The notes under the pieces were generated by a model. It was not told the DNA's origin, made no database searches, and saw nothing but the letters and a program-made list of their open reading frames with translations. Of a stretch of DNA of 64,000 bases, positions 3 to 17,670 are shown piece by piece. Both the position numbers and the translations under genes were made by a program. The stretch is from Candidatus Heimdallarchaeota archaeon (lineage in GTDB: Archaea; Asgardarchaeota; Heimdallarchaeia; Heimdallarchaeales; Heimdallarchaeaceae). Where the stretch lies: assembly GCA_030603365.1 (NCBI GenBank), contig JAUVXV010000003.1, forward strand, positions 96,001 through 160,000, in the 5' to 3' direction. Position 1 is the stretch's first letter; each line of letters opens with the position of its first letter.

Positions 3-1586
3 GACGAGAGTACAAATGCGTATGTCAATACTACAAGTTTGATTTATGGTGAGAATGTCAGTTATATTGTAGAAGTCACAGATTCTCTTACTCATTCAGA
101 GATAGTAGGTCTTAAAATAAATCTTAATAATTCAGCTTTTGATTTCATTGTTAATGTTACAAAACTTGATAGTATTACTTATGAAATTCTAATTGTAGCT
201 AACAATGTCACTGATAGTATTTTTGCTAAAATAGAAATTCAATTCTATAAATGGGAAGAGAGTAAACAATATATCCAAATCTACTTGAAGGTGGATAAAA
301 AAGAAGGATCTCTTTTCATTCATCAAAGTAGTGTTGATACAGTTACCTATGGAGAGATTATTCCTGTCATAATATATCTTCAAAATGACTTAGGTTTAAA
401 TGAGACAATTCTGTCTATAGTAGTTAATGGATTGATTACTGATATCAAAATTTTAGGTGATGGGTTGTATCAATTTAACTTCTCATCCACCGCACTAACT
501 AGTAAAGGAAATCATACTCTGGACATTCAAGTTCAATCTGAGTTCTTTTATGGTTCGAACAGTGTTTTTACAATTGAGGTTTTACCAATTCAGTCTCAGA
601 TATCAGTTGAAGTTACGAGTTATGAAGTACTAGAAGAATCACAAGTAGTTATCAGAGGTTTACTAACAGCAGACGATGGAACACCTCTTTCTGACCAAGA
701 AATACTGGTTTATGTTTATATTGTTGAAGAATCAAATGGAAGACTTGTCTATGCTTTGAATATAGACGATTATGATGATTATAGAATTATTACAGTGTAT
801 ACAGATGCTGATGGTTACTTTACTGCATCTTTCCAGATGTATGAGGGAATAGAGTATATTGACATAGAAGTATTCTATGATGGTAATAATCATCATGATA
901 TCTCCTCTTCTGTTCTAGATGCTTCTGTTTATTCAATGAAACCTCCAGGACTTCCATCTTGGTTATTATATACAATTATTGGTGGAAGCGTGCTTTTGGG
1001 TTTGATTGTTTCACTAATTATATACAAGATAGTTAAACCTAAACCATTTGAAGCTTTAATGGAAAAAATAACAGATGAACAAATAGCACTAAATTATTCT
1101 ATTATGTCTCCAGGTGTTGTTCTTTCCATTTTTGATCAAAGAAAAGGACCTGTACCTCTAGTAATGGATCATAGTTTAGAGCTAGGACAGTATGTAGGAC
1201 GACTAAGAATGGGGACAGAGAATTTCATACTTAAAATCTCTGACCAGGCATACAGCTCGCTTGGTTTCGAAGAACATGATACAGGTCGTAGAGTTGGTTC
1301 TATTGTTCTACCAGGAGAAAAAATGGTGGGATGGGTACATGGAATACAACTACCAAATGAAACCGCAAGAGGGGGATTTGAAAATCTTTCATTAATCGTT
1401 CTAGCAGATTCAGAATATAGTAATTTACTATTAAATTATCAAGATTACTTATACGATGAAGCAGACAAGTTAGTTGAAGTTCTAAAGGCAAAAAACCAGC
1501 TCGATAATATTAAAATCATTATAGAGGGAATAAGGAAGAAATCAGTAATAATAATGCTAGCAGCGCAAGGGATAGAAGAGAAATAA
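3..1586 (+). CDS. 5'-truncated single-pass surface protein: Ig-like ectodomain, TM helix, cytoplasmic longin/uDENN-like domain
   Basis: Frame is open from base 3 (DESTNAYVNTTSLIYG), so the gene starts upstream of the window. Beta-rich ectodomain with N-x-S/T sequons; TM PSWLLYTIIGGSVLLGLIVSLIIY; C-terminal VVLSIFDQRKGP...NETARGG; clear paralogue of the next ORF. Confidence 0.8.
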   Translation, partial: DESTNAYVNTTSLIYGENVSYIVEVTDSLTHSEIVGLKINLNNSAFDFIVNVTKLDSITYEILIVANNVTDSIFAKIEIQFYKWEESKQYIQIYLKVDKKEGSLFIHQSSVDTVTYGEIIPVIIYLQNDLGLNETILSIVVNGLITDIKILGDGLYQFNFSSTALTSKGNHTLDIQVQSEFFYGSNSVFTIEVLPIQSQISVEVTSYEVLEESQVVIRGLLTADDGTPLSDQEILVYVYIVEESNGRLVYALNIDDYDDYRIITVYTDADGYFTASFQMYEGIEYIDIEVFYDGNNHHDISSSVLDASVYSMKPPGLPSWLLYTIIGGSVLLGLIVSLIIYKIVKPKPFEALMEKITDEQIALNYSIMSPGVVLSIFDQRKGPVPLVMDHSLELGQYVGRLRMGTENFILKISDQAYSSLGFEEHDTGRRVGSIVLPGEKMVGWVHGIQLPNETARGGFENLSLIVLADSEYSNLLLNYQDYLYDEADKLVEVLKAKNQLDNIKIIIEGIRKKSVIIMLAAQGIEEK

Positions 1587-1600
1587 GAAGGAGGATTAAA

Positions 1601-4600
1601 ATGACTAGAAATAACAACAAGATTTTTGGACTAATACTTATAATTTTATGTTTTAATACAGTGACCCATCAAGAGATTCTAAACACAGAATCAACTAACT
1701 CTGATGTTGAAAACCTATTGAATGATCCTCCTTATACTCCAAGTTTTCCAGGCTATGTAGACAAAGCTGAAAATCCTGATGATAGTTCACTTATAACAAA
1801 TACCGAAATCGAGGGAGAGTTTCAAACTTTAGCATTTTTCCCTGGTGGAACAGGTAAAATTTATGGGGAATCTCGAGTAGGTGAGACCCTGATCAATGAT
1901 CCAGCAGGTGAGGATCCATATGATAGAAGAAATATTTTTGAATGGGTTACCTACGACGATATCAAAGATGATGGAACATTAAATAAAGAGATGTACTGGA
2001 GAGCTCTGAGTGATGAACCTCTTACTTGGCCGAATTCTACAGATTGGTTCTACATGAGAGAGAGAAATTCTCCACATGAACCTTCCAAAATTTATAGTCC
2101 AGTTTTCACAGAGGACTATGAAATCACAGGAAGAGTCTACTGGTTATCTTGGTTTGAATCAAATGACGATCCTCCTTTTTCAGAAGCAATAAACATTGGT
2201 TATCGTCAGAGTCTTTACCTCTTCAACCCAGCAGATCCTTCCAATCCCACTTTACTTGCTAGTATACAGAGTATATATTATGAACCTAACATCTGGGCAG
2301 GTCAAAGAACACACTTTGCAGATTTAGTTGGAACTACACTAATTCCTGCTGGTTATAGATTAAGATGGGATATTGAAATACGGTTCAGTTTAGTTCCTTC
2401 AGCAGGATCTTTTCTCCAGTATACTGGTTACCTACATACTGGTGGTGGTTCAACAACATGGACAATCGATGATCCTGATCCAATTTATGATAGCACATAT
2501 ACAATTAATAATGTGACAAGGATGTCAGGAATTCAACTTAGAATGCGTTCTAAAGGATATCCTACCATAAATGTGTTAGGAGCGACTGACAATGCTGTTT
2601 ATCAGGTTCTTCAGAATATGACTATCGATGTGACTGATGGTTCGATAAGTTCATATCAGTGGAATGGTGGAAGTTGGACTTCTTTTAGTGATTTAACGAC
2701 CACTTCTCTTCCTGATAATCATGGTTGGAATGAACTTGAAATAAAAGCAAGTGATCCAGTTTTTAACAACACAAAGATTGTTACTTATATCTTTGGATAT
2801 GATAAGTCCTTGATTAATGTTGTACTTAATAGTCCTCTTACGAATGGGTCGACTATAACGGGTGGAACTACCATTGATTTGGATGTTTTCAGTGTAAACC
2901 TAACAGAATACATGTGGGATAATAATGGAACGTGGGTTCTTTTAGAGAGTCCATATAACATAAGCGCTCCAGATTTTGATGGAGAACACATACTAACAGT
3001 TCGAACATCTGATTTCTACACTATTGAATCTGTTGTCTATATTTTTGTTTTCGATTCTACTAATCCAATAATTCAGTTATATAATGTAGTCAATGATACA
3101 ACGCATGCCCCCAACAAAGTAATTGAGTTCAATATTACAGATAATTCTGCTATTCAAACTGCTTACTATAATTGGGATTCAGGAACTGATCAATTATGGA
3201 CACCTGCACAAGGAACCATTTATCAAACTAGCCTACCAATAGGTATTGGATATCATGAACTAGTTACAAAAGCAAATGATACATTCGGTCATTATACTGA
3301 ACAATTCTATCGGTTTTATACAGATGATCAGTTGTTCTTATTAGAACTTGCTGAATTACGTAATGATTCTTATTATCTAGGTGGAGATGATGTTGTTATT
3401 AACGTTCAAAAAAGTAATGGAACCATTAAATATGTCTGGGATAGTGGTACTATCAAAGACGGGAGTATCATTGCATCTCAAATGACACTAACAGGTGTAG
3501 ATGCTATGCCTACTACAGCAGGTCCCCATAATTTAACAATTATAACTTTTGATCTTATAGGGACAATGTATGTTTTTTACTTTAACTTCATTGTAGACCT
3601 TGAAGCTCCAATCATAGATGGTTCAATAGTTTCTCTCTATAACGACACAAGATTTACGACTGATAACACAATGGAATTTATTATAACTGATAATTATACC
3701 CGAACAAACCAACTTATTATCTATATATCAATTGATGGTAAAGCTAACCAAACCCTTAACTCTCCTTTTGAATTACATCTCTATACATTTAACGATGCTA
3801 CTCACTATTTCACAATATATGTCTATGATTTAGCAGGTAATTACGCTATTCAGACCATCTTCTTCCATATTGATACTCTTGCACCTATAATTGAAATAGA
3901 TATCCCAAGTATGATTGTTTTTCAAGAAACGAATTATGTTACAACAGGGGCAGAAGTTATAGTTACTGTAGATGATTTAGATCCTCTTGTTGATACATTT
4001 TACTCTTGGTCAGGAGCTGCTAATTCAAGCTTCTCAGGAAGTATAACTTTAAGTTATGGAGATAGTACAGGTGATCTTCTAATATTCGCAAATGATTCGT
4101 TGGGACATCTTGATTATTATACTATTATTCTAATTATAGACAATACAGCCCCACAATTATTCCTTTCCTCCCCAAATGTGCTTGATGAAATTAATAGATT
4201 TACTGACCTCGAATTCGATATCAATGAAGAGAATATCCAAACAGTTAACTCTATTGGATATTATTGGGATAAATTGCCTTTTTATTATTTCAATACAACA
4301 TACGATAGTTACGATAGCTTTGCACTAAGAATTCCTTCCCTTTTCTTCGATGGACCAGGTGCATATGTAACAGGAAATACTGCAACTCTTGTAATAGAAC
4401 TTTATGACATCCTAGGACATTCTGTATTTGGTAGTTTCGATTTTATTATAGACAGAGATGCTCCTATTCCTGGTTTATACCTGAATGAAAGTGGTGTAAT
4501 AACGCAATTGGAAGAAGGAATCATTTATACAAGTTTAGGCGAAACACCTCTTCTGTATAAGAATGATACAAATGATGACATAGCGGATTTATACTGGATT

Positions 4601-6427
4601 TGGGATGATGACGATGCAACAGGTGATTCATTAGAATTTGGTGGTATTTTAACTGGTGGATATTTGCTAGTAGATATTGTGCCACCAGAAGATGGCCGTC
4701 ATTATCTAAGAGTAGTTTTAACAGATAATACGATAAGTAGTCAACCAAATTTTATAGAATATATTTTCAACATTACTGTAAATGATATTAATATTGATAT
4801 TACTGAACCTAATCCTGAAATGTGGGTTGAGGAAGCAGATTTCTTGTCTTACCATCATAGAATGAACTATACTGATTCATTTAGTTTTACTGTTAATATC
4901 ACAGATACAGTAGATGGTTTAGAAATTCCAGATTTGCAAAATAGAACTATTTCAAGAGTATATAATCTCTTAGCAAGCATTGTTCAACTTGACAATACTA
5001 TCTATGAATGTACTATTGTAGCTACTAATGTTACAAATGGTCTTGAAACACATATAGATTTTGAATTTTACTTAATCGACGGTGGTTCTCAGAAGCTAAG
5101 GTTTTACTTGATTGTAGATAAAAAACTTGGTAGTCTGGAAATACTTGATAAAACAGAACTTACAGTTCAATACGATGAGGATATCGATGTTTACATTGGG
5201 TTAAAAGATCATCTTAGTCAAAATCTTTCAATTATTTATGTTGAAGTCAACTCTCTGATTACTAGTTTTTACAATATAGAAAATACTACAGAATTCTGGT
5301 TCAGATATTCAACACATGGGTTAGAAGAAGGAGAGCATGCAATTACCATTTATGCAGAGAGTACATTTTATTATGCAAAATTGGAAGGTAATTTGACTTT
5401 CGAATTTACAGTCACTCCACTACCCATTTTCATAGATATACAAGTCTCCAATTCTACTGTTTTAGAAGGAACAGAATTTACAATAACTGCAGCATTAACC
5501 TTCCAAAATGGAACAGGATTTGCTGGACAACTTTTACACTTCTTTGTATACTCATATTCGTATGAAACAACAACAGGAGAAGTTTCAGCAGCAATCCCAA
5601 CAAATTATACAACTTATATTATATCAAACAGAACAACCAACATCAATGGTATAGCAACCATAATATTTACTATGTCAACTGAAATTGATTATGTCCTTAT
5701 TGCAGTTACTTATGATGGTGGTGATTTTGTTGACACTTCATACTCTGAATTTGATGAGAAGGTAGTTAAAATTTTTCTACCTGGTTTTCCAAGTTGGTTA
5801 CTTTATACTTTGATTGGTGGAAGTCTATTTGTAATTTTAATAATCTCCCTCATTGTTTATCGAGTAACACGAGGTAAACCATTCGAAGAAGTAATGGAAA
5901 TCGTAACAATTGATGAGATAAAAGAACGATATGAGACTTTATCACCTGGCGTGATTCTAACAATATTTGATCAGAAAAAAGGACCAATACCTCTTATTGC
6001 ATCTCATTCTCTAGACACAACTAGATATCTTGGTCGTATGCAGATTGGTGTTGAAAATTTTATGCTTAAAATAGCTGATCAAGCTTATAGCTCTCTAGGT
6101 TTTGAGGAGCATGATGTTGGAAGAAGAGTAGGTTCGATAATTCTTCCTACAGAGAAGATGATAGGATTTGTTCATGGTGTTCAACTCCCTAATAAGATGG
6201 CTCGAGGTGGTTTTGAAAATCTATCATTAATTGTTCTTGCAGATTCGGAATTTGGTAACTTATTACTAAATTATCAAGAATATATTTATGATGAAATTGA
6301 TGTTATTATTGAAGCTTTGAAGACTAAGAAGCATTTGAAACAAGTTGAAGAATTACTGCGAATAGTTAGACATAAATCAGTTAAGGTCATGCTTACCGCA
6401 GAAAAAGTTGAACAAAAGAAAGGATAA
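1601..6427 (+). CDS. 1608-aa single-pass surface protein: signal peptide, Ig-like repeats, TM helix, cytoplasmic longin/uDENN-like domain
   Basis: GGAGG SD upstream; hydrophobic N-terminus; repeated D-x2-AP / A-x-D-x2-G Ig-like motifs; many sequons; TM near 5790-5860; VILTIFDQKKGP...NKMARGG. Confidence 0.85.
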   Translation: MTRNNNKIFGLILIILCFNTVTHQEILNTESTNSDVENLLNDPPYTPSFPGYVDKAENPDDSSLITNTEIEGEFQTLAFFPGGTGKIYGESRVGETLINDPAGEDPYDRRNIFEWVTYDDIKDDGTLNKEMYWRALSDEPLTWPNSTDWFYMRERNSPHEPSKIYSPVFTEDYEITGRVYWLSWFESNDDPPFSEAINIGYRQSLYLFNPADPSNPTLLASIQSIYYEPNIWAGQRTHFADLVGTTLIPAGYRLRWDIEIRFSLVPSAGSFLQYTGYLHTGGGSTTWTIDDPDPIYDSTYTINNVTRMSGIQLRMRSKGYPTINVLGATDNAVYQVLQNMTIDVTDGSISSYQWNGGSWTSFSDLTTTSLPDNHGWNELEIKASDPVFNNTKIVTYIFGYDKSLINVVLNSPLTNGSTITGGTTIDLDVFSVNLTEYMWDNNGTWVLLESPYNISAPDFDGEHILTVRTSDFYTIESVVYIFVFDSTNPIIQLYNVVNDTTHAPNKVIEFNITDNSAIQTAYYNWDSGTDQLWTPAQGTIYQTSLPIGIGYHELVTKANDTFGHYTEQFYRFYTDDQLFLLELAELRNDSYYLGGDDVVINVQKSNGTIKYVWDSGTIKDGSIIASQMTLTGVDAMPTTAGPHNLTIITFDLIGTMYVFYFNFIVDLEAPIIDGSIVSLYNDTRFTTDNTMEFIITDNYTRTNQLIIYISIDGKANQTLNSPFELHLYTFNDATHYFTIYVYDLAGNYAIQTIFFHIDTLAPIIEIDIPSMIVFQETNYVTTGAEVIVTVDDLDPLVDTFYSWSGAANSSFSGSITLSYGDSTGDLLIFANDSLGHLDYYTIILIIDNTAPQLFLSSPNVLDEINRFTDLEFDINEENIQTVNSIGYYWDKLPFYYFNTTYDSYDSFALRIPSLFFDGPGAYVTGNTATLVIELYDILGHSVFGSFDFIIDRDAPIPGLYLNESGVITQLEEGIIYTSLGETPLLYKNDTNDDIADLYWIWDDDDATGDSLEFGGILTGGYLLVDIVPPEDGRHYLRVVLTDNTISSQPNFIEYIFNITVNDINIDITEPNPEMWVEEADFLSYHHRMNYTDSFSFTVNITDTVDGLEIPDLQNRTISRVYNLLASIVQLDNTIYECTIVATNVTNGLETHIDFEFYLIDGGSQKLRFYLIVDKKLGSLEILDKTELTVQYDEDIDVYIGLKDHLSQNLSIIYVEVNSLITSFYNIENTTEFWFRYSTHGLEEGEHAITIYAESTFYYAKLEGNLTFEFTVTPLPIFIDIQVSNSTVLEGTEFTITAALTFQNGTGFAGQLLHFFVYSYSYETTTGEVSAAIPTNYTTYIISNRTTNINGIATIIFTMSTEIDYVLIAVTYDGGDFVDTSYSEFDEKVVKIFLPGFPSWLLYTLIGGSLFVILIISLIVYRVTRGKPFEEVMEIVTIDEIKERYETLSPGVILTIFDQKKGPIPLIASHSLDTTRYLGRMQIGVENFMLKIADQAYSSLGFEEHDVGRRVGSIILPTEKMIGFVHGVQLPNKMARGGFENLSLIVLADSEFGNLLLNYQEYIYDEIDVIIEALKTKKHLKQVEELLRIVRHKSVKVMLTAEKVEQKKG

Positions 6428-6441
6428 TTCTTCTTCTTTTT
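6428..6441 (+). terminator. pyrimidine/oligo-T tract after the surface-protein pair
   Basis: TTCTTCTTCTTTTT immediately after the stop codon, typical of an archaeal terminator. Confidence 0.4.
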
Positions 6442-6525
6442 ACCGCCTTTATCGATATATTATTATTGTATTTTCCGACAATTATCATAAAGGTTATATT
6501 AACACTAGTAATTAGAGGCTCAATT

Positions 6526-8421
6526 ATGTCCTATCTCTTCGATGAACTATCAGGAAAAGAAGACAGCAAAGCTACAGTTGAAGATAAGATTCTTCTTATG
6601 GGTCTTCAAGCTGCAGGAAAAACTGCTATCAAAGACGTTGTCTTCTTCAACAAACAACCTGAAGAAGTTAACGATTATATGGCTACAGTACACTATCAAA
6701 GACAGTTCATTGATGAAGAACAAAAAAGTATGATTATAGACTCTGGTGGACAAGAAAGTTATTGGAATGAAGCTGTTACTCATTTTAGACATCTTGTTTT
6801 TTCCAATGTTAAGTTGTTAGTATGGATTGTAGATGTTACAAAACCAGAATTATTCGAAGAATCAGAAAGACGATTCAGTTTTACAATACGACAATATAAA
6901 AAAGAGAATCCAGATGGAAGCATCACTGTTTTATGCCACAAAGTTGATTTAGTTACTCCAGAAAAAATGATTGTAATTCATCAACATGTTAGAGATATGT
7001 TCAGTGATCCTCGTTTTGAAGTTGATTTCGAAAATACTAGTATCTACTACTCTGACAGTCTCAAAGAATTATTATTTACTATAATGGATGAAGCTGGTAT
7101 TAACACTAAACGATTCGAACTTATCTCTAATCTTGGTCAGAAAGTTGAAGAGAGTGATGAATTCCAGAGTTATGTTATGGAACATCAGGAAGATCCAAGA
7201 GTCCAACAGTTACGTGATTATTTAAATCCTGAACCTGAAGCTCTACTTCCTTCTTTTGGAAAATTAACTTTGCAATTCGATCTGAAAGAGTATGACATTG
7301 TTGAAATAGTACTTATTGAAAAAGAAACGAATTCTCCCATAGTTGGAGCTTCATCTCAAGCTAATGTAACTGCTGAAAATTCCATGGAATATCTTATTGG
7401 TCTTCATGATTTTAAGAATAAGTTAAAAGAAAATGGAGAAAGTATAGACCCAACAGGGACAGTGTTTACATCATCTACAGGAAAAGTACATGCATTGGTG
7501 TTCAGTCTTGATGTTAATTATCTCCTTATTACTTCTTTCGATCCAATAACTGACGAGAGGAAAGAATTACTTTTTGAGCTAATCCTTAGATTCGCTCAAT
7601 CAACAACTGCAGCTGCAGAAGCTCCTCCTCCTCCTAGTGCTCCAGCTGTTATTGAAGAACCAGTTGCTCAACCCGATCCAATCGCTGAACAACCTGTTGC
7701 ACAACCAGAACCAGTTAAAGCAGCTGAAGAAGTGGCAGTTGCTCAAGAAACAATTGAGGTTCAAGAAGAAATTCCAGTTGAAGTAGCGGCTCCATTAGAA
7801 GTTGAAACTGCTGTCCCGGAAGCAAAACCAATTAAAATTGAAGAGATATTAACTGCTGAAGAAAAAGATGCAGGATTTTTCGAACCAGCTATAGTTGGGG
7901 ATGAATTTCTAGGTAAGGAAGAGCCTGTTACAGTAGTTGAATCTGAACCAATTCCTGCCACAACGGAAGAAGTTACAAAAATCTCTCAACCTGAGGTACA
8001 AGAGAAAGTTGCTGAAGCTGTTTCTGGAGAAAGAGAAGTTAAAATTGAAGACCCAGTTCCAGTTGTAACACCTCCAACACCTCAACCTGCTAAAGTTGTT
8101 GAAGAAGGTGTTCCTGAACCTCCCAAAGTTGAACTTGAACCTGAACCAACTCCTATTACTGAGGAACCTAAGGTAGAACTAATTCCTGTTCTAGCTGAAG
8201 TAGGAACACCCAAACAAGATCCAGTTGAAGCTACAGGAGATGGATTAACGATTAATTTTTCAGCTGATGATATCAAAAACTTTGCAAACTTCTTAGTTCA
8301 GAAAAAAGAAATAATTCTAGATGAATCTATAAATATCGAAGATATTAAAGGACTGTCCAATTTCTTATTTAAAGGGATAACAGAAGATAAAGAAGAACAA
8401 AAAGAAGAAGAATCAGACTAA
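6526..8421 (+). CDS. Rag/Gtr-family small GTPase with roadblock/longin-like domain and long acidic Pro/Glu/Val-rich tail
   Basis: KILLMGLQAAGKT (G1), DSGGQ (G3), HKVD (G4), TSIY (G5). ATG 6526 preceded by GAGG is preferred over the TTG at 6466. Confidence 0.85.
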   Translation: MSYLFDELSGKEDSKATVEDKILLMGLQAAGKTAIKDVVFFNKQPEEVNDYMATVHYQRQFIDEEQKSMIIDSGGQESYWNEAVTHFRHLVFSNVKLLVWIVDVTKPELFEESERRFSFTIRQYKKENPDGSITVLCHKVDLVTPEKMIVIHQHVRDMFSDPRFEVDFENTSIYYSDSLKELLFTIMDEAGINTKRFELISNLGQKVEESDEFQSYVMEHQEDPRVQQLRDYLNPEPEALLPSFGKLTLQFDLKEYDIVEIVLIEKETNSPIVGASSQANVTAENSMEYLIGLHDFKNKLKENGESIDPTGTVFTSSTGKVHALVFSLDVNYLLITSFDPITDERKELLFELILRFAQSTTAAAEAPPPPSAPAVIEEPVAQPDPIAEQPVAQPEPVKAAEEVAVAQETIEVQEEIPVEVAAPLEVETAVPEAKPIKIEEILTAEEKDAGFFEPAIVGDEFLGKEEPVTVVESEPIPATTEEVTKISQPEVQEKVAEAVSGEREVKIEDPVPVVTPPTPQPAKVVEEGVPEPPKVELEPEPTPITEEPKVELIPVLAEVGTPKQDPVEATGDGLTINFSADDIKNFANFLVQKKEIILDESINIEDIKGLSNFLFKGITEDKEEQKEEESD

Positions 8422-8423
8422 GT

Positions 8424-9653
8424 TTAAACTGGTCTGCTGTCATCATATCTTCTATATTCTAAATCTCCATCAAGAAAGATTGGTATTTCTCTTATACCTT
8501 CTACACATTCATGTAATGGGAACATCTCAACTGATGTTGCACCAAATCCTTTTTGGACTTTAATACCTCTTTCAAGATTTTCAGAATTTTCTACTGCAAC
8601 ATCGATTATAGATTTCTGAAGATTACGACCACAAATATCACATTTAAATGAGATTGACTGTTCTACTCTTCTTTCAATTGTTTCACCTTTCTCAAGACCT
8701 TTTTTGAGTAGGTAATCTACTAAAGTGCCTTTCATCTTTATTCTTGCTCTTCCTATTAGTTCATCTGCTTGGAAAAGCTCTTTCATCTCAGCGGCAAGAT
8801 TCATGAAGTATTCTATCTCTTCATCTACTGAATGCTGAGGAGGAAAGACAGTTGTTAGAATAAGATCTTGATCTACTTCTCTCATATATACTCTGTTTTC
8901 ATCAAATGAGAATGTCACATAATCTAATTGTAATGTTGGTGAAAACATCTTGGCAAGATCATTTTTTAGTTTAACAAAATTGAATCCTGTATATCTCTCT
9001 GGTTGAGAATAGAGCATTAGACCTTGAGCAGTTGATAATGAAAGAAAAACCAAATCTTGTTTGCTAAAAGCTTCCTTAATTTTAACAGACTTTGTATCAT
9101 CTTTTGGAAAGACATATGCAATCACTTGTTGCATTGCGTCCCAGATTGTATCTTCAAAGATTGAAGTTGCAAATAGATCAGCATTCGTAAATTTGTCAAT
9201 CTCAAAAATATCTTTTATTGATTGTAAAACAGGTTCTCTTTTATTTGGTGGAACAACATCCATTTTATGTGCAAAAACATAAATTCTTGCTCCCTCTGAT
9301 AGTTGTTTAGCGTTTTCCATTGTCAGATCAAAATAATACTTAGATCTCATAATGTTTGAAGCATCAGAAATATCGATAACGAAAATGAATGCTTTTACAT
9401 CACTGAAGGTTCTTTCTTTGTATTGTTCAAATACTTCATTCAAGTAATTGGATTGCCCTCCAACATCAAATAGGTTAATGGCACTTCCTGCAAGATTGAA
9501 CAGTTTTCTGTTAATACGAACAGTCGCAGGGTTCATTGATGTTGCTTCTGGAGCAAAGCCTTCGAAAACTACTTGACGTATAGAAGTTTTACCAGACTGA
9601 GATAAGCCAAGAACGACAATTTTGGATTCTAATTCATTTCCACCAGTGTACAT
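8424..9653 (-). CDS. Rag/Gtr-family small GTPase with roadblock/longin-like domain and C-terminal Zn-binding domain
   Basis: GLSQSGKT, DVGGQ, HKMD, TSIF; C-terminal CDIC...HEC. Confidence 0.85.
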   Translation of the reverse strand: MYTGGNELESKIVVLGLSQSGKTSIRQVVFEGFAPEATSMNPATVRINRKLFNLAGSAINLFDVGGQSNYLNEVFEQYKERTFSDVKAFIFVIDISDASNIMRSKYYFDLTMENAKQLSEGARIYVFAHKMDVVPPNKREPVLQSIKDIFEIDKFTNADLFATSIFEDTIWDAMQQVIAYVFPKDDTKSVKIKEAFSKQDLVFLSLSTAQGLMLYSQPERYTGFNFVKLKNDLAKMFSPTLQLDYVTFSFDENRVYMREVDQDLILTTVFPPQHSVDEEIEYFMNLAAEMKELFQADELIGRARIKMKGTLVDYLLKKGLEKGETIERRVEQSISFKCDICGRNLQKSIIDVAVENSENLERGIKVQKGFGATSVEMFPLHECVEGIREIPIFLDGDLEYRRYDDSRPV

Positions 9654-9933: not shown

Positions 9934-10008
9934 ATGAACAGAAGAATGATCAAGTTAGTTTTTCCAGTATTTCTCTTTTCTCTTACACTTTGCGTTGTCT
10001 CAGTATAG
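9934..10008 (+). other. possible 24-aa hydrophobic small ORF (signal-peptide-like)
   Basis: Manual translation MNRRMIKLVFPVFLFSLTLCVVSV*; too short for the ORF track. Confidence 0.25.
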
Positions 10009-10054
10009 AGAAAATATGCAAAAAGATAATAACATCTTTCTTCACATTTTAGTT

Positions 10055-11497
10055 ATGGCCTACGATGTGATTGTAATAGGTTCAGGTTTGGGTGGATTGG
10101 TGGCAGCCGCGAAACTTGCTAAAGAGGGGAAGAAAGTTCTTGTTGTTGAACAGCATTCCAGTATAGGAGGATATGCAACCTGCTTTACAAAGAAAAATTT
10201 CACTGTCGATGTAGGTTTCCATTCTATGGATGGGCTCTATGTTCAAGATCCCAAAATAAAAGTTTTCGAAGATTTAGATGTTTATATTAATATCGAGTTC
10301 ATTAAAATCCCAACAGGTTATTTCAGATTTACTAATGAGAGAGTTGATTTTACTTTACCTGATACAGTTGATGAAGCTATTACCGAACTTAAACAACAAT
10401 TTCCAGAAGAAGAAAAGGGTATTCGTACTTTCTTTAAAACCATTGAAAACATATCAACATCAAAGTGGAGTAATAAATCAGTAGGAGAAATGTTAGATTC
10501 ATTATTTCGAAATGATGATATTAAATTAGTCTTAACAGGGGCAATGTTATATTATGGTGATGATCCTTATACTACTTCAGCTAAAGCATTCTCAACTGCA
10601 GTTTCAAGGATATTCAAAGGAGGAAATCATTACATAAAGGGAGGTTCGTTGAAACTTACAGATTATTTTGCAAATTTTATTAAAGAACATGGGGGTACTA
10701 TTACTTTAAATAAAAAAGTTACAAAAATTCTTACTGACTCTCTTGGTTTAATTACAGGAGTTGAATATGAGTCAACTTCTAATGATGATACTGTGAAAAC
10801 TCAAGTTGATGCTAACTTTGTTATTCTAAATGCTTCAGTACCTCAAGTAGCAAATGTTTTGTTACCTGAAAATGAGACTACCTCTCTATTAAGAGAAGCA
10901 GTTAAACAAATGAAATTAGGCCATTCTGTTCTGAATGTCTATTTAGGGTTTGATACTCCCCTTGATAAATTAGGTCACAAAGATTATCTTACCGTTGTAA
11001 ACGACCAAAGTGTTTTCAAGCTTAGTGATGTATTTGGGAACAATAATACAGGTTATTCAAAAAGGAATTTTCTCTTTGTAGATTACAGTCAAATTGATAG
11101 TGGGATGGCCCCATATGGGAAAAGTACGGGTGTTATTAGTACAATTGATTATATAGAAAATTGGTCTAAGTTGGATGAAGACAATTATAAGTCAAAGAAA
11201 AAGCAAGTTGAAACAGAATTCATTGAAAGATTAGACAAACTCATTCCAGGTGTTAAAGATCACATAGAGTTCGTTAGTGTTGCAACACCAAAAACAATGA
11301 AAAGATATACACTCAATCCAAAAGGATCAATCATTGGATTTGCTCGAACACCAATCCAAGTGGAAATGTACCCTCTAAAATCACCAATAAAGAACTTGTA
11401 TTTCTCATCTACTTGGTCAATTCCAGATGGAGGGTTTACTTCAATAATAGAAGCTGGATGGAATAGTGCTGTTTCAATATTAAGAAAAAGAAGATAG
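10055..11497 (+). CDS. FAD-dependent oxidoreductase, phytoene dehydrogenase/retinol saturase-like
   Basis: YDVIVIGSGLGGL Rossmann motif, GGY, ATPKT..RYT..P.GSI.G, NLYF...GG. Confidence 0.85.
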   Translation: MAYDVIVIGSGLGGLVAAAKLAKEGKKVLVVEQHSSIGGYATCFTKKNFTVDVGFHSMDGLYVQDPKIKVFEDLDVYINIEFIKIPTGYFRFTNERVDFTLPDTVDEAITELKQQFPEEEKGIRTFFKTIENISTSKWSNKSVGEMLDSLFRNDDIKLVLTGAMLYYGDDPYTTSAKAFSTAVSRIFKGGNHYIKGGSLKLTDYFANFIKEHGGTITLNKKVTKILTDSLGLITGVEYESTSNDDTVKTQVDANFVILNASVPQVANVLLPENETTSLLREAVKQMKLGHSVLNVYLGFDTPLDKLGHKDYLTVVNDQSVFKLSDVFGNNNTGYSKRNFLFVDYSQIDSGMAPYGKSTGVISTIDYIENWSKLDEDNYKSKKKQVETEFIERLDKLIPGVKDHIEFVSVATPKTMKRYTLNPKGSIIGFARTPIQVEMYPLKSPIKNLYFSSTWSIPDGGFTSIIEAGWNSAVSILRKRR

Positions 11498-11516
11498 TTT
11501 GGATCTTAACTCCTTA

Positions 11517-12512
11517 CTATCTGAATTCAAGTTTGTTTATTTTCAGGAATTCTTCATGAACTAAATGACTCAGTGCAAAAAGAAACTGAGGATAACTCTG
11601 ATTAGGATTCATTTCCTTGTAAGTATCAAGTATAGATTTTTCATGATTAGTCAGATAGAATACTATAAGTTCCTTACAGAGAATTTTGATGTTGGGACTC
11701 AGTTCTTGGAAAATAGTGGCTTGCTCAGTATTAAATCTTCGTAGACCTTCAGAAGATGACTTTGGAAAAGCGATTGTGGAATTAACAAGGAGATCTAACT
11801 CGACAAGATTTCTTTCTGTAGGTTCTTCAACGATATTATCATCTATGAATTCAGCAATTAATTTCAAAACCACTTCATCTAGATATACTAGTGATTCAAG
11901 AGTATCTGCTATATGTTGTATCCATTTTCTAGCTTCAGTAAATGGAAAAGATTTTTGTCCTTGTTTTGAAGCTGTTTTTAGTTGATGTTTCCACTCCTTA
12001 TAGATCCGATCTACTATTTTGGCAGAAATAAAAACTTGTATCTCAATAAACCCTAGAGTTGACTTTATTGTAATTCTTTTTCCTTCTTCTTTTTTGTCAA
12101 AAGTATATTTGCTGTTTCGGATTTTGTCAGTTATCTCCAAACCTGTGATATTTATCCTTTCGAAAGTTTTAGTGTCAAAGACCTTTTCTACCATTGCAAT
12201 TTTTTGGGGAGTAGGAATTCCAAGTGATTTAAAAATATCTTGTTCATCTTCTCCTGTTGAAAAATCTCTATCAGTTTCATAACCATAGTGAGTCGATTTA
12301 ATGTGAACCTGAGATCTTACTGTAAGAAAATTATCAATAAAACACTTTATTGCAGAGAGATTGTTCTGAGCACAGTTATGGACATCAACAAATTCTAGAA
12401 TTGTTGAAAGAGTATCAGATTTCAGTAGCTTAGATGGAATGTTTAGATTCCGTTGCTTTTGACATTTATTGCATTGATATTCTACCTTTTTTATTCCATT
12501 CTGACTACTCAC
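11517..12512 (-). CDS. hypothetical protein with N-terminal CxxC...HxC Zn-binding domain and possible C-terminal winged helix
   Basis: CNKC...DVHNC...FIDNFLTVRS; C-terminal SILDTY...ALSHLVHEEFLKI. Confidence 0.65.
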   Translation of the reverse strand: MSSQNGIKKVEYQCNKCQKQRNLNIPSKLLKSDTLSTILEFVDVHNCAQNNLSAIKCFIDNFLTVRSQVHIKSTHYGYETDRDFSTGEDEQDIFKSLGIPTPQKIAMVEKVFDTKTFERINITGLEITDKIRNSKYTFDKKEEGKRITIKSTLGFIEIQVFISAKIVDRIYKEWKHQLKTASKQGQKSFPFTEARKWIQHIADTLESLVYLDEVVLKLIAEFIDDNIVEEPTERNLVELDLLVNSTIAFPKSSSEGLRRFNTEQATIFQELSPNIKILCKELIVFYLTNHEKSILDTYKEMNPNQSYPQFLFALSHLVHEEFLKINKLEFR

Positions 12513-12670
12513 CTGATACCCCCTAGATGTATATGAACTAATTTGCTTATTTTCTTATATATTCTTTTAGATAATTCTAACGAAATTTTACAGCAGATTT
12601 TTTCTTATTTTTTTCATCCGATACTTTAAAAACAACCTTATTTTATTGGGGGTAACAAGGTGTAATTAAT

Positions 12671-13795
12671 TTGACTAAAGCTGTTGAAAAATCAATGGAA
12701 CCCTATGAAAAATTAACTAAGACACTCAACACCATACCTAATGGTTTTCCAACTATAGAGGATGGTACTCACCTTCGTCTTCTAGAATGGATCTATGAAC
12801 CTGAAGAAGCAGAATTAGCTAGTAAACTAAAACTTTCTGCTGAAACAGTCAAGAAAATGTCCAGACGTTTGAAGATTCCTGAAGATGAACTTACTAAAAA
12901 GTTAGAGATTATGGAATCAAAAGGACAGTTGCGTATAACCAGGTCACGAGGTCGATTCCCTAGAAGAAAATCAAAAGGTCAAATTAAATATGGTCTATTA
13001 CCTTTTGTTGTAGGAGTTTATGAAGAGCAAATTCACAGAATGGATGCTGAATTTGCTTCCTTGTTTGAAGAATATGTTCAGAAAACTAAAGGAGCAATTA
13101 TTTTTTCGACTAAACCAGCAATTCAGAGAGTTGTTCCGGTTAAAAGCGTAATTAAGACAGAACTTGAAATCCATCCCTATAATCAGGTAGAACAAATGAT
13201 ACTTAATGCTAAAAGCTGGGGTATAAGAGATTGTATTTGTAAAAAACAACAGGAGCTTATTGGTGATCCCTGCAAATACGATGATAGGGTTTGTTTAGTA
13301 TTCTCAGGTAGAGAAAATAAATATGAAGAAAGTCATCAAACCACAACAATAACCATGGAAGAATCACTTCAAATTCTTAAGGAAACTGAAGAAGCTGGAC
13401 TAGTCCATACTTCTATGAATATTGAAGATGGTCATAGTTACATCTGTAACTGTTGTACCTGCTGCTGTGGTGTTCTCAGAGGTTTTGTGGAATGGGGTCA
13501 ACCACAAGCATTCGTTAAATCTGATTATGTTATCGATATAGATGAAGAAACATGTATTGGCTGTGGAAAATGTATTGATAGGTGTCAGTTCAATGCACTT
13601 TCGATAGTTGATAAAAAATGTGTTTCTAATGATAATTGTGTAGGTTGTGGAGTATGTGCCTTAGTTTGTCCTACAGATGCCTTAAGCTTAATTGATAGAA
13701 ACCCCAAAGAAACAAAGAAACCTCCAAAGAATATTTTAATGTGGATGCTTAAACGCGCATTCTCCAGAAAGGTTAATCTCCTCAAAATCATCTAA
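12671..13795 (+). CDS. 4Fe-4S dicluster ferredoxin-domain protein with N-terminal HTH-like region
   Basis: CICK..C..C and CNCCTCCCG motifs; two CxxCxxCxxxC motifs; AGGTG SD upstream of the TTG. Confidence 0.85.
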   Translation: MTKAVEKSMEPYEKLTKTLNTIPNGFPTIEDGTHLRLLEWIYEPEEAELASKLKLSAETVKKMSRRLKIPEDELTKKLEIMESKGQLRITRSRGRFPRRKSKGQIKYGLLPFVVGVYEEQIHRMDAEFASLFEEYVQKTKGAIIFSTKPAIQRVVPVKSVIKTELEIHPYNQVEQMILNAKSWGIRDCICKKQQELIGDPCKYDDRVCLVFSGRENKYEESHQTTTITMEESLQILKETEEAGLVHTSMNIEDGHSYICNCCTCCCGVLRGFVEWGQPQAFVKSDYVIDIDEETCIGCGKCIDRCQFNALSIVDKKCVSNDNCVGCGVCALVCPTDALSLIDRNPKETKKPPKNILMWMLKRAFSRKVNLLKII

Positions 13796-13858
13796 TAGAA
13801 TATGATTCTTCATTAAGTACTAAATGCTTAAAAATCTTCAAAAGAATTAGTCTATAGT

Positions 13859-14476
13859 ATGGTGTTGGTTTCAGATCTCTCCAACTATTTTTTTATTACA
13901 TATCTATGTGTCTATGTTATATTTCATGTTCCATTTGATATTTACATGCTGATAAGAAAAGGAAAAGCATCCTACCCAACACCTAAATTCAGATCCACAT
14001 TAGAAGGATTATCAGTAGTTTTATCCTCCTTTATATTTTGGTTCTATATGATTTTAAGTCCAATTATTGTCTTTTCATCAGGCAAGAATATTTTTGTTCT
14101 TGAAGATATCCCAGAAGAAATAAAACTTCCTATAACTATAGTTGGAATTGTCATAATGTCTATAGGGTTGATTGTAGGCTGTTTAGGTAGGATTGGTAGA
14201 GGAGTGTATCTAGCAAGAAATGAAGCAAAGCTTGCTACAAATTGGGGGCATGCACTAGTTAGGCATCCATCATACTTTCTTTACATAACTGGTTTTATTG
14301 GTATCCCGTTTGTTGCTATCTCACCTTATTTGTTTATTCTTTTATTGGGGATTCCTGGTTATATGATAACTTCAAGACTAGAAGAGGGTGTTTTAATTGA
14401 GACTTTTGGAGATGAATACAAAGATTATCAAGAAAAAGTTGGGAGATTTGTTTTCAAAATCAGAAAGAAAAAGTAG
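13859..14476 (+). CDS. isoprenylcysteine carboxyl methyltransferase (ICMT/Ste14/PEMT)-family membrane protein
   Basis: Multi-TM; VRHPSY; EE..L...FG.EY..Y...V motif. Confidence 0.8.
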   Translation: MVLVSDLSNYFFITYLCVYVIFHVPFDIYMLIRKGKASYPTPKFRSTLEGLSVVLSSFIFWFYMILSPIIVFSSGKNIFVLEDIPEEIKLPITIVGIVIMSIGLIVGCLGRIGRGVYLARNEAKLATNWGHALVRHPSYFLYITGFIGIPFVAISPYLFILLLGIPGYMITSRLEEGVLIETFGDEYKDYQEKVGRFVFKIRKKK

Positions 14477-14478
14477 GC

Positions 14479-15837
14479 TCATTTGAAAGGCCATTTTTCT
14501 AACAATCTCAGATTATCTTCCAATTTCGCGTCTTGAAGTATTTTGATTATTTCTGCTTCTTTCAATCTCTTAGGCATCTCCTTCATTTTACTGAAAGCAT
14601 CTATAAAAACAAAAGCAAAAGCAGTTGAAATCTTTGCATCAAGTCTTGATATTTTATCAAATGTGTCAGCTGATGTGTGACCATATCCTCTCCCTACTCT
14701 TGGATCAGGTTTTTCTCCAAAAATACATACGTTAGGAATCCCCTTTAAGAAATATGGATAATTATCACTAGCTGAAATAATGTTATTGGTAATTTTTGGA
14801 TCATAGAGAAGCTCATTCTTTAGTTCTTTTACTTTCACTAATAACTCTTCTATGCCACTGCAAGTAATATGTTTTGGAATATGCCCGATTAAACCGTCAA
14901 GGTTTATCATACCAACAATATCTGCGACATCAGAATCATTAACGTATATTGTAGACCCTACTACTCCAAATTCCTCAACACCAAATGCAACAAATCTCAG
15001 CGTTCTTTCAGGTATATAGTTTACTTCTTTCATCAATCTGGAAATCTCTAAAATCGCAGCGATTGATGCGGCATTATCTGTAGCTCCTTGAGCAATATCA
15101 TGACCATCATAATGACCTCCAATCACAATAACTTCATCCTTATTTTTGCCTGGAATTTCCCAAATGATATGTTTTGATGTTAATTTTGGAATTTCGTTTG
15201 AAACGAATATTTTGCATGTTAGAACATCTTCTTTTCGTAAAATTTCTTTGATGTGCTCATAAGATTCTTTAGATATCCCTATTGCAGGAATTTCTCCTAT
15301 TCTGTTTGATCTTACAGAACCTGTCGGAAATAGTTGTCCCGGATTATGATTTGCAAAAACAAATACTTTTGCACCGTACTCATAAGCATTAGCATATTTT
15401 ATCCTTCGATGTAACCAGCCTTCCTCTGTATCTCCTGAATGAATCATTACAGCTTTTCCTGGAGTAGAATTCTTAATCCGTTTTAGTTCTGTTTCTGATC
15501 CACCAAACCCATCAATAATGTTTGTTTCTATAGTTTCACCATTTGTTGAAGGAGCTAAAACTAGTGATATTGCTGGAAAAGAGTATTCTTTCGTTTTACT
15601 TACAATGCTAAATTTACATTCTCCTCTTATCCAACCTTGATATTCAAAATCATAATTAATAACAGGAATTCCAATATCCTTGAGATACTTGTTCATATAT
15701 TCCTGAGCAATTTTTTCACTTTCTGTTCCTGAAAATCTACTCCCCATTAAGCAAAGATCTTTTATTGTTTCAAAAATCGAATCTTTGGAAAAAATCTTTC
15801 CTAATATTCTTTCCTTAAGATCCACTTCTTCATTCAT
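14479..15837 (-). CDS. M28 family aminopeptidase with PA domain
   Basis: GGHYD, GATDNA, EEFG..GS, NLD, SDNYPY, HTSADT. Confidence 0.9.
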   Translation of the reverse strand: MNEEVDLKERILGKIFSKDSIFETIKDLCLMGSRFSGTESEKIAQEYMNKYLKDIGIPVINYDFEYQGWIRGECKFSIVSKTKEYSFPAISLVLAPSTNGETIETNIIDGFGGSETELKRIKNSTPGKAVMIHSGDTEEGWLHRRIKYANAYEYGAKVFVFANHNPGQLFPTGSVRSNRIGEIPAIGISKESYEHIKEILRKEDVLTCKIFVSNEIPKLTSKHIIWEIPGKNKDEVIVIGGHYDGHDIAQGATDNAASIAAILEISRLMKEVNYIPERTLRFVAFGVEEFGVVGSTIYVNDSDVADIVGMINLDGLIGHIPKHITCSGIEELLVKVKELKNELLYDPKITNNIISASDNYPYFLKGIPNVCIFGEKPDPRVGRGYGHTSADTFDKISRLDAKISTAFAFVFIDAFSKMKEMPKRLKEAEIIKILQDAKLEDNLRLLEKWPFK

Positions 15838-15868
15838 GTCTAAATATTTGGATTATGGACTTTTAAAA

Positions 15869-16132
15869 CTAACTCCCCAACGTTAGAAAGAAATCTAGTT
15901 GTTCTCTGATAAATGCTTCATCAGCACTACCAATAATGCGTTGATTGTTAGGAAGAACTATTGTAGGTATTGCAACTATCTGATACTCTTCTGCTTTTGC
16001 TATATCCTTGGAAACATCAATTATTTCAAGCTCTAGATGATCTGAATCTGCAATAATGTGTCTTAAAACACCTTCCAAATAAGGACACCAACTACAGGAT
16101 GGACTCTTGAATAGTATTATTTTAAGACTCAT
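15869..16132 (-). CDS. thioredoxin-fold protein with CxxC, KaiB-like
   Basis: CSWC; ELEIIDV....KAEEYQIVAIPTIV...RIIG; 8 bp downstream of the KaiC-like gene. Confidence 0.8.
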   Translation of the reverse strand: MSLKIILFKSPSCSWCPYLEGVLRHIIADSDHLELEIIDVSKDIAKAEEYQIVAIPTIVLPNNQRIIGSADEAFIREQLDFFLTLGS

Positions 16133-16140
16133 TATAACAC

Positions 16141-17547
16141 CTAATCGACAATTTCTATTAATGGTATTTTCTCCTTATATTTCACTACTTTGGGTAGGAA
16201 GGTCGCTCCTGTTGAACTTTTTATACACTCAATATATGTTGTATAATCTTCTCTAGAAAATCTGATTATAATATCTGCAGTTGTTCGCAATCTTGCTAAC
16301 ATTTCTCTACTAATAGCATTGAAGTTTATGAATGAATGAGCTACAGCTCTCTTCTCCTTAATATTGAAGGATTGGAGTGCGAAATAACGCAAGAATTCAG
16401 ATTCAGAAAGAATATTAGCATCATCTGTAAGATCTCCATAAACGACTACTTTCTGATTCGATTTTTGAAATGCTTCCATCAATTCAACAGTTACAGAAAT
16501 CATATCATCTGTTGTCATTAGTTGACTCATTTCTCTAGCTTCTATTGCAGTTACTGAACGATTATACTTGTCAATGAATACGATATTTCCTTTATTCATA
16601 AAAGGTTCAATGTCACAATCAGCTTTTTTGAAGTCTTCAATAATCCTAGATGAATACATATGTACATTAGAATGAATAATTATTCCCTTGTCCTTTTCAA
16701 GATTGTAACATAAAGTACTCAAAAATAATGGAAAATAATTTGTTTCGCCATCAACTTCTATCAATACAACACTCCCAGAAGGAATACCTCCTCCAAGCAA
16801 ATTATCTAGTTTTTCTATACCTGATGATTCTTCATGTATTATAGATACTGGAGGTTGTTCTGACCTTAGGATGGATATGCCATCTCTATTGATAATGAAC
16901 CTGTTCTCAGAATTAATTGGTTTTGCTGACCTTAGTTTTGGAATTGAGATTCGTTTAATGAGTTGATTGTTTTTTAATTCAGTTCGAATCTTAATTACAC
17001 CATCAACAAGAAACTCCTCTATGGTGGAATATTCCTCGTTCATCCGGGATTCAGCAGTTAGAACTAGCACTGCATCTTCATTAGTGATTTCCCGTATGAA
17101 ATCCATGAAATTGCTTCTAGCAGTTTTTTCATATTTGAACTCAGCAAAGAAAGCTGAAATTGAATCAAAAATTATCATTTTTGCATTGATAGTTTGCATT
17201 CTATTTTTGGTTCGAGCAATAATAGCTGATAAATCAAACCTATCTGTCTGAACTAGATTTGTTCCCATGGGTTTTAGAGACATCTTTTCTAGAAGTAATA
17301 ATCCTTTTTCTACATATGAATCCAGATCCATATTAAATGATTTACCATAAATCATCAATTTCTCAATATCCACTTCTGTTGAGATAAACAAGACCGGAAT
17401 GCCTGCTTTTAGAGCTCCAAGAGTCATAAAGAGTGAGAGAACTGTCTTCCCTGATCCGGCAGTTCCTTTAATTGCATAGCAGAAGCTTGTCCTCAAACCT
17501 CCGTCCATCATTTTATCAAGTTCTTCTATGCCAGTAGAAATAATCAT
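16141..17547 (-). CDS. kaiC: KaiC-like double RecA-domain ATPase (second domain degenerate)
   Basis: STGIEELD..GG, GTAGSGKT, STE, IIFDS, IEEFLVDG, KLR; second repeat SSGIEKLD..GGG with Walker A replaced by DGETNY. Confidence 0.8.
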   Translation of the reverse strand: MIISTGIEELDKMMDGGLRTSFCYAIKGTAGSGKTVLSLFMTLGALKAGIPVLFISTEVDIEKLMIYGKSFNMDLDSYVEKGLLLLEKMSLKPMGTNLVQTDRFDLSAIIARTKNRMQTINAKMIIFDSISAFFAEFKYEKTARSNFMDFIREITNEDAVLVLTAESRMNEEYSTIEEFLVDGVIKIRTELKNNQLIKRISIPKLRSAKPINSENRFIINRDGISILRSEQPPVSIIHEESSGIEKLDNLLGGGIPSGSVVLIEVDGETNYFPLFLSTLCYNLEKDKGIIIHSNVHMYSSRIIEDFKKADCDIEPFMNKGNIVFIDKYNRSVTAIEAREMSQLMTTDDMISVTVELMEAFQKSNQKVVVYGDLTDDANILSESEFLRYFALQSFNIKEKRAVAHSFINFNAISREMLARLRTTADIIIRFSREDYTTYIECIKSSTGATFLPKVVKYKEKIPLIEIVD

Positions 17548-17670
17548 CTTTTTTCAATTATGAAGATATTCAAACTTGTATAAAATTATATCTAAAGTTG
17601 TAGAAGGGTGTTAGTTTGATTTCTAAAAGAACTCAACTTATTTATATTATTAGAAATGTTTCAGCTTATT

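Follow-up and report, generated by a model that had tools for sequence, protein, structure and literature searches.

We report that the 64-kb window of DNA analysed here (C13:96001-160000), from a genome of 3.65 Mb and 32% GC belonging to the Heimdallarchaeaceae, the archaeal family that also includes Ca. Heimdallarchaeum aukensis, is occupied at positions 3-9653 by four open reading frames (ORFs). Two encode tandem giant surface proteins with a single transmembrane (TM) helix and a predicted longin domain as cytoplasmic tail (TM-longin proteins), and two encode GTPases of the Rag/Gtr family, here called RagL and RagS. The common denominator of the evidence points to a direct functional coupling of the longin with Rag-family GTPases. 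Specifically, we propose, with a probability of roughly 0.55, that the tail is a membrane-anchored arginine-finger longin regulator of Rag GTPases, for which GTPase-activating protein (GAP) activity would be the most likely role because of an invariant Arg in an RGG-x-EN block, a Gly-Pro (GP) motif and structural neighbours of the GAP type. A preliminary description of the same DNA had noted receptor-longin genes beside a Rag pair and had interpreted them as a receptor-coupled Rag switch. The observation is confirmed and, as far as computation reaches, the interpretation is supported in part: the fold and the linkage, two points on which it could have been refuted, are borne out, the DENN module that was also claimed is not.

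The TM-longin proteins

The first of the tandem genes (3..1586, + strand) enters the window as the C-terminal 527 amino acids (aa) of a 1586-aa type-I membrane protein that begins upstream (full ORF, L007:6827-11587; longin hidden Markov model (HMM) score 264 bits). Its TM helix lies at ~960-1025 and its longin tail at ~1107-1583, with the GP motif at 1146-1151 and the invariant Arg at 1368-1370. The second gene (1601..6427, +) begins 14 nt after the end of the first ORF and encodes a 1608-aa protein with a signal-like N-terminus, an Ig-like ectodomain, one TM helix and a longin tail. The helix of this protein (residues 1401-1419; 5801..5857, +) was located by a hydropathy scan, is also modelled as a helix and is followed by R/K residues, consistent with the positive-inside rule. 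The predicted FLCN/SMCR8-type longin domain covers residues ~1448-1608 (5942..6424, +), as judged from an AlphaFold2 (AF2) model, VIA-align Z scores and invariant columns, and includes the GP motif (G1461-P1462, 5981-5986, +) and an invariant candidate arginine finger, R1535 (6203-6205, +). The two paralogues of ectodomain-TM-tail design that had been described, with tails given as ~180 aa, are thus present as ORFs of 1586 and 1608 codons with tails of ~185 aa.

Both proteins follow one plan, as do two more paralogues encoded at other places in the genome. A short, basic and hydrophobic stretch, signal-like in character, forms the N-terminus and precedes an ectodomain of ~1350-1400 aa, in which 34-37 N-x-S/T sequons (2.4-2.9 per 100 aa) occur; a single hydrophobic helix with K/R behind it then leads into the ~185-aa tail, which has 0-3 sequons. 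From the sequon-rich ectodomain, the single helix with its K/R residues and the sequon-poor tail we predict a type-I topology in which the tail is cytoplasmic; the ectodomains are probably N-glycosylated. The paralogues of this genome are homologous end to end at 29-37% identity and their tails are far better conserved. For the two window proteins identity amounts to 37% over the full length, 44% across the last 519 aa and ~60% for the tails (in an alignment that includes the TM helix), which agrees with the earlier claim of similar tails and diverged ectodomains. The Ig character ascribed to the ectodomain holds at the family level, where Pfam Big_13 (bacterial Ig-like) is found in 15 of 26 members (best E 4e-9) and Big_3_3 in four of the 26; the Big_13 match in the window protein itself is weak (E 0.013). 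Moreover, W-D/G-x-H-L columns repeat along the length of the ectodomain in an alignment of 26 relatives.

Predicted fold of the cytoplasmic tail

The AF2 model of the tail, built on an alignment of 36 tails, has a predicted local distance difference test score (pLDDT) of 90.4 and a predicted template modelling score (pTM) of 0.83. In it the TM helix and two short helices precede a domain ordered b1b2-a1-b3b4b5-a2-a3, the longin topology (strands 46-53, 57-65, 105-111, 116-126 and 134-144; helices 80-95, 155-170 and 175-203). On the basis of this model the cytoplasmic domain of ~165 aa is predicted to adopt the longin fold. Among solved structures Foldseek ranked a Lokiarchaeota longin (8yqg) first, followed by FLCN (8dhb_J, 21% identity), Lst4, FNIP2, GATOR1 and C9orf72-SMCR8. 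The VIA-align Z scores of the tail model were 13.1 for 8yqg, 12.9/11.7/11.5 for FLCN, 12.2 for C9orf72-SMCR8, 12.0 for Lst4 and ~10 for NPRL, and they were lower, 7.5-9.5, for the generic longins Ykt6 (SNARE), AP sigma (adaptor) and TRAPP. In the ESM Atlas the shape neighbours of the tail were an Asgard longin-GTPase fusion, a Heimdall cluster with the Folliculin Pfam family, C9orf72, SMCR8, FLCN and Avl9. The best eukaryotic matches are thus FLCN, SMCR8/C9orf72, Lst4 and NPRL2/3, and the longin part of the longin/DENN tail that had been postulated stands. The DENN module was considered and rejected, given that Pfam gave no DENN match and the model comprises a longin only.

An exhaustive HMMER search of 1.8 billion representatives yielded 58 relatives only; in nearly all of them the domain is C-terminal, and the proteins that carry it there are 900-2350 aa long.

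The Rag GTPases RagL and RagS

RagS and RagL scored 124 and 92 bits, respectively, against Pfam Gtr1_RagA (cut-off 22 bits; E-values 9e-36 and 6e-26), and their best PDB sequence matches were RagA for RagS (2e-22) and Gtr1/RagA for RagL (2e-13). Both keep G1 and the catalytic Gln, and HKMD/HKVD (G4, the Rag-specific HKxD), TSIF/TSIY (G5) and DxGGQ are invariant in the orthologue alignments of both. Judged by these features, RagL and RagS are genuine Rag/Gtr-family GTPases. The earlier statement that two Rags follow the receptor genes holds for their identity, with the correction that RagS does not run in the same direction: it is encoded on the minus strand and is convergent with RagL, their stop codons lying 2 nt apart.

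RagL (631 aa; 6526..8421, +) has in its G domain the motifs GLQAAGKT (G1), DSGGQ (G3), HKVD (G4) and TSIY (G5). Its start was placed at the ATG at 6526, where the N-terminus MSYLFDEL, conserved in 10 orthologues, begins; a TTG at 6466 was rejected on the same ground. Beyond the G domain come a middle region and a Pro/Glu-rich tail that is variable, with a short conserved motif at the C-terminus. The sequence pattern and Atlas features, which score 0.94-0.97 to Rag clusters, lead us to infer that the middle region is roadblock-like; we put it no more strongly because, when the RagS and RagL alignments were compared with hhalign, only their G domains aligned and no roadblock alignment was obtained for RagL. 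The C-terminus (8250-8421, +) reads F-S-x-x-D-I-K-x-F-A-x-F-L, followed by an acidic tail, in the orthologues, and the Pro/Glu-rich linker in front of it is very variable in length. This conserved sequence may be a peptide docking motif.

RagS (409 aa; 8424..9653, -) is predicted to have a G domain at residues 1-181 (9111-9653, -), and its AF2 model shows a roadblock, a-b-b-a-b-b-b-a, at residues 186-293 (8775-9098, -). The model matches full-length Gtr1/RagA over ~297 columns (Foldseek E 1.5e-19, TM-score 0.74), and RagS also matches LokiRagO and LokiRagM. C-terminal to the roadblock a helical linker leads to a small Cys/His beta domain (residues 333-394; 8472-8657, -), for which a conserved CDxCG...H-x-C, zinc-ribbon-like, was seen in the cassette orthologues of Heimdallarchaeaceae (f1) and of a second family of the class (f7); the domain is absent from 300-aa counterparts in Hodarchaeales (f5) and from eukaryotic Rags. 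Pfam searches with the C-terminal parts of RagS and RagL gave no match.

By analogy with RagA/RagC, RagS and RagL presumably form a roadblock-mediated heterodimer. That every cassette retains a long and a short Rag gene hints at such a heterodimer but is suggestive only. TATA-like boxes, identified by eye only, are present in front of both RagL and RagS.

Linkage of TM-longin and Rag genes across genomes

With a Rag-subfamily HMM, five of the 3714 ORFs of this genome scored above 100 bits (196-311) and all others reached at most 46 bits. Four of the five flank the three TM-longin loci of the genome and every locus has a Rag neighbour, against a chance expectation of ~0.3% per locus; chance adjacency within this genome is excluded because four of only five Rag-subfamily genes lie next to TM-longin loci. 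The fifth (194 aa, G domain only; C9:81639-82223, L008:5640-6224) is located between Nre-family and DJ-1/PfpI-like genes and has no longin neighbour.

In f1 and f7 the order of the cassette is G3 (a third GTPase gene, see below), TM-longin (1-3 copies) and RagL on one strand, followed by RagS on the other. RagS was found 2-2.5 kb past the longin tail in all 21 f1/f7 genomes having both genes on one contig, a count that leaves aside six exceptions due to contig breaks. Flanking genes are common to members of one genus only; four unrelated contexts hold the same cassette, and in one genome (G014) it is rearranged and still intact. In Hodarchaeales at least 12 loci have an adjacent 300-aa Rag, often together with a Rag of 560-740 aa, and at one locus in another class (G397) Rags are present on both sides of the TM-longin gene. 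The link between TM-longin and Rag genes, for which conserved synteny had been proposed as a check, is thus conserved across families and survives change of context and one rearrangement.

The two gene types also tend to occur together. Among 83 genomes of the class, which are related and do not represent independent counts, 45 have both, 27 have neither, eight have TM-longin only and three have RagS only; within the genus the corresponding numbers are 17, five, two and one. As an example, Ca. H. aukensis (G015) has both gene types, and in G016, the second complete genome of that genus, both are missing.

Outside the class the tail profile gave one weaker match per genome in many genomes, and there the domain occurs in other contexts. 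In lineage f20, which belongs to another Asgard class, the closest homologue of the tail is the N-terminal longin of a 453-470-aa protein in all three genomes examined, and the rest of the protein is a Gtr1_RagA GTPase (E 4e-23 to 6e-26; L133:7761-9173, L134:6055-7458 and L135:108-1469). These fusion proteins keep GP and ARG, have an additional C-terminal region and in one case match Pfam Folliculin above its cut-off, at 25.5 bits. Because the longin is fused to Gtr1_RagA in one protein, the f20 proteins independently argue that this longin type couples to, and works with, Rag-type GTPases. In two further lineages outside the class the same longin domain is fused to a Ras/Rab-like GTPase (f16) or placed in front of a DENN-like region (f15). 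At L133 a second Rag (315 aa) is encoded two genes upstream of the fusion gene.

It could be argued that the adjacency lacks functional meaning, and that the TM-longin proteins are adhesins or S-layer-like proteins with a structural tail that happen to lie beside GTPase genes; the position of RagS on the opposite strand would fit with this. We consider it highly improbable, given the low chance expectation, the retention of the cassette in unrelated contexts and after rearrangement, the three paralogous loci each with its own Rag paralogue, the joint presence or absence of the two gene types within one genus, and the fusion protein in another class.

Conserved motifs and the candidate arginine finger

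Thirteen columns are invariant in the 36 tails (G46, F52, Q54, G57, P60, D89, S93, F97, R131, G132, E135, N136 and R186). In the model G57-P58, the GP motif, opens strand b2, and R131, which corresponds to R1535 and is carried by the invariant RGG-x-EN block, is located in the b4-b5 loop; it is invariant also in 26 full-length relatives, and the block is kept down to ~25% identity among the 36 sequences. Pfam Folliculin (PF11704) was the sole family matched by more than one tail, with sub-threshold matches in 19 of the 36, and R131 falls inside the stretch aligned to Folliculin positions 50-105. Arginine fingers of GAP longins are FLCN R164, NPRL2 R78 and SMCR8 R147. Two blocks of human FLCN, which we take to be hydrophobic-F-x4-G-P and A-R-G-x(2-3)-hydrophobic strand, align with the tail, and we treat this as a lead and not as a test. 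According to a recent study (PMC12290439), a GP motif at the start of b2 beside an arginine finger is specific to FLCN, NPRL2, SMCR8 and C9orf72, and the pair is also found in some Asgard longins, notably in Heimdallarchaeia. Fold and motifs together make the tail a candidate longin of the FLCN/SMCR8 GAP type. Unlike the eukaryotic pairs, which combine an Arg-plus with an Arg-less partner, both tandem paralogues in the window retain the Arg.

The receptors of Hodarchaeales, which reach 2000-10000 aa, show a different arrangement: in tandem arrays, a pair of Arg-bearing TM-longin genes precedes another gene, of ~1000 aa and with a divergent longin tail, and in these third paralogues (L051:2374-5451, -; L077:11717-14605, +) Gly occupies the arginine-finger position. 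Such a paralogue may be a non-catalytic partner comparable to FNIP, NPRL3 and C9orf72. As a side observation, Hodarchaeales frames of 8800-10400 aa (G075:C193, G070:C10, G057:C87 and G074:C52), which are among the largest archaeal proteins, still end in the TM-longin tail.

Proposed mechanism and alternative explanations

Our data suggest the following model. The locus would be a plasma-membrane receptor-longin module coupled to Rag-type GTPases, in which two tandem giant type-I surface proteins would each place an FLCN/SMCR8-class longin just under the membrane. Most likely the tail would bind the neighbouring RagL and RagS directly, and it would probably stimulate their GTP hydrolysis via the invariant Arg beside the GP motif, as FLCN, NPRL2 and SMCR8 do. 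External ligands or cell contact might cluster or pair the receptors, which would be a plausible point of control. Receptor pairing is a plausible switch given that longin GAPs act as dimers, that 8yqg is dimeric and that the tails sit on single-pass proteins. It is in the physical binding, the GAP rather than guanine nucleotide exchange factor (GEF) or anchor activity, the dimerisation, the direction of signalling and the output that we infer beyond what was observed, and that ligand-induced dimerisation might set the nucleotide state of the Rags is pure conjecture. A complex prediction with RagS 1-296, RagL 1-365 and the tail gave a score of 0.01, which speaks neither for nor against binding.

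Several points weigh against the model. With respect to the tail itself, the DENN lobe (uDENN-cDENN-dDENN) is absent, both from Pfam matches and from the model, because the protein ends with the longin helices. PDB sequence searches with the tail and with its 36-row profile gave no FLCN match and nothing meaningful (a single antibody match is regarded as due to chance). The Pfam Folliculin scores of the window tails, 18.9 and 15.4 bits, are below the cut-off of 23.3. P58, present in the window proteins and most relatives, is replaced by Ala in several relatives, and the assignment of R1535 as counterpart of FLCN R164 is that of a candidate, based on the fold, the place in the loop and an HMM alignment below threshold. 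An obvious partner longin lacking the Arg was not detected in this genome. With respect to the neighbourhood, RagL is separated from the second TM-longin gene by 98 nt, RagS is on the strand opposite to the receptor genes, the gene for G3 is packed tighter against them, and about half of the sampled Hodarchaeales TM-longin loci are without an adjacent Rag, and those genomes have Rag clusters at other sites as well. Finally, most eukaryotic longin/DENN modules are GEFs or platforms and not GAPs.

An alternative is that the tail serves the Rag pair as a docking platform without catalytic activity, as an effector site or as a GEF, and tethers the Rags at the plasma membrane, for which the Ragulator/EGO roadblock dimers, SRX-SRbeta, Mon1-Ccz1, the TRAPP longins and the SLC38A9 tail would be models. 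In an inside-out version the GTPases might control deployment, clustering or turnover of the surface proteins. What linkage, co-occurrence and fusion demonstrate is coupling and not catalytic action, it is established that known longin-GTPase pairs are mostly of the GEF or platform kind, 8yqg, the best structural match, is an Asgard longin that forms dimers and to which no activity is attributed, and the Pro of the GP motif is not invariant, all of which would be in keeping with a platform or GEF. On the other hand, the Arg in the b4-b5 loop is invariant within its RGG-x-EN block across 36 sequences as divergent as ~25% identity, exactly this Arg has been lost in the third Hodarchaeales paralogue, which fits a catalytic/non-catalytic pair better than a plain anchor, and the structural neighbours are specifically longins of the GAP type. 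On balance we regard the platform or GEF explanation as rather unlikely, and we favour the arginine-finger regulator.

The third GTPase, G3, raises the question of which GTPase the tail would act on. G3 is a 243-aa divergent Ras-superfamily GTPase encoded upstream of the window (C13:92080-92811, L007:6081-6812) on the same strand as the receptors, with the motifs GDGxxGKTH, PGQKG, GTHLD and ISN, of which PGQKG (switch II) and THLD (G4) are unusual. The gene ends 14 nt upstream of the first TM-longin gene, and because of this short gap G3 may be the real client of the tail, with the Rags acting downstream or in parallel. The position is kept in 11 of 11 canonical loci examined and the unusual switch II and G4 suggest a specialised partner, which would speak in favour of G3. 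However, as found here, homologues of G3 are confined to the f1/f7 cassette, whereas Rags are the neighbour that recurs at each of the three paralogous loci, among Hodarchaeales and in another class, and Rag-type GTPases are the fused partner in f20. It therefore appears quite unlikely that G3 and not the Rags is the client. One distant paralogue of G3 is present in this genome.

If the regulator acts on the Rags as proposed, a broader reading with respect to evolution can be considered, which is possible but tentative. In this reading the switch of the Rag-FLCN/GATOR1 type would have begun as a plasma-membrane receptor system in Heimdallarchaeia/Hodarchaeales and not as a lysosomal nutrient sensor: Ig-like receptors with GAP tails, paired by contact, would set the state of a RagA/RagC-like dimer, and Arg-plus/Arg-minus pairs would foreshadow FLCN-FNIP and NPRL2-NPRL3. 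The external trigger would be binding or cell-cell contact, e.g. with syntrophic partners.

Relation to known systems

The best eukaryotic structural matches, FLCN-FNIP (Lst7-Lst4), NPRL2-NPRL3 of GATOR1 and C9orf72-SMCR8, resemble the tail in the longin fold, in the GP at the start of b2 with an invariant Arg in the neighbouring loop, and in the coupling, here genomic, to Rag-family GTPases with a roadblock C-terminal domain. They differ in being soluble longin and DENN heterodimers that are recruited to lysosomes, whereas here a lone longin tail is found on a giant single-pass protein; moreover, the eukaryotic GAP pairs include an Arg-less partner, while here the Arg is kept twice and the Folliculin match is below threshold.

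Ragulator/EGO and SLC38A9 are comparable in that the Rag dimer is held and regulated at a membrane, either by a membrane-bound roadblock/longin-superfamily domain or by a membrane protein's tail. Ragulator differs in being lipid-anchored and built of roadblock subunits and SLC38A9 in being a multi-pass lysosomal transporter; unlike in both, the membrane here is presumably the plasma membrane and the domain a longin with a candidate Arg finger. Plexins are single-pass receptors with an intracellular Rap-GAP domain that are activated by ligand-induced dimerisation. As an analogy only, their logic is the same, in that one TM helix joins a large ectodomain rich in Ig/IPT domains to a cytoplasmic GAP that acts on a small GTPase, but the GAP fold is RasGAP-like instead of longin, and the GTPase family and the lineage are others.

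In Asgard archaea, GP-motif longins of the FLCN/SMCR8 type, i.e. the same kind of domain with GP and Arg, have been described (Traffic 2025, PMC12290439). That study poses the explicit question of whether these longins partner with Rag or ArfR GTPases, and its main text mentions neither a transmembrane fusion nor a gene-neighbourhood link to Rags. Asgard Rag-like GTPases, longin-GTPase fusions and FLCN-like longin-DENN proteins have likewise been published (PMC10933270; 10.1101/2020.10.19.343400). The f20 fusions belong to the known class of Asgard longin/roadblock-GTPase fusions (same sources; PDB 8yqg, 8yl2 and 8zla), and the best structural match of the tail is the longin domain of the Loki Roadblock-Longin protein (8yqg). 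Tran et al. 2024 (PMC10933270) report that the GTPases of MK-D1 as a rule do not share operons with longin or roadblock genes, and an FLCN-like DENN operon carries a Rab-like GTPase and not a Rag (Liu et al. 2020, 10.1101/2020.10.19.343400); compared with these reports, the cassette described here supplies the missing Rag-longin linkage. In the open literature, subscription papers being outside the search, neither a transmembrane longin nor a Rag-longin cassette was found to have been described.

Asgard Rag-like GTPases and FLCN-like longins were thus known and the pairing of regulator with GTPase was an open question, to which the cassette offers a specific and conserved pairing in lineages closest to eukaryotes. 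The 165-aa tail, the 409-aa Rag and the ~365-aa Rag core are small enough to express, so that the partner question can be tested directly, and the TM-longin and Rag cassette offers a candidate prokaryotic precursor of Rag signalling that can be put to the test. If the model is correct, this would be the first case from prokaryotes in which a receptor bears a regulator of a eukaryotic-type small GTPase, and ancestral Rag signalling would have been located at the cell surface and not on an organelle, which bears on eukaryogenesis and on how Rag/mTORC1-type signalling arose.

Genes downstream of the cassette

The stretch downstream of the cassette (window 9995-20910), whose genes are not kept beside it in other genera, carries ordinary metabolic and housekeeping genes, including those for an amine oxidase, a ferredoxin-domain protein, an M28 peptidase, a KaiC-like ATPase, a tRNA-splicing endonuclease and CCG/FAD-oxidase proteins.

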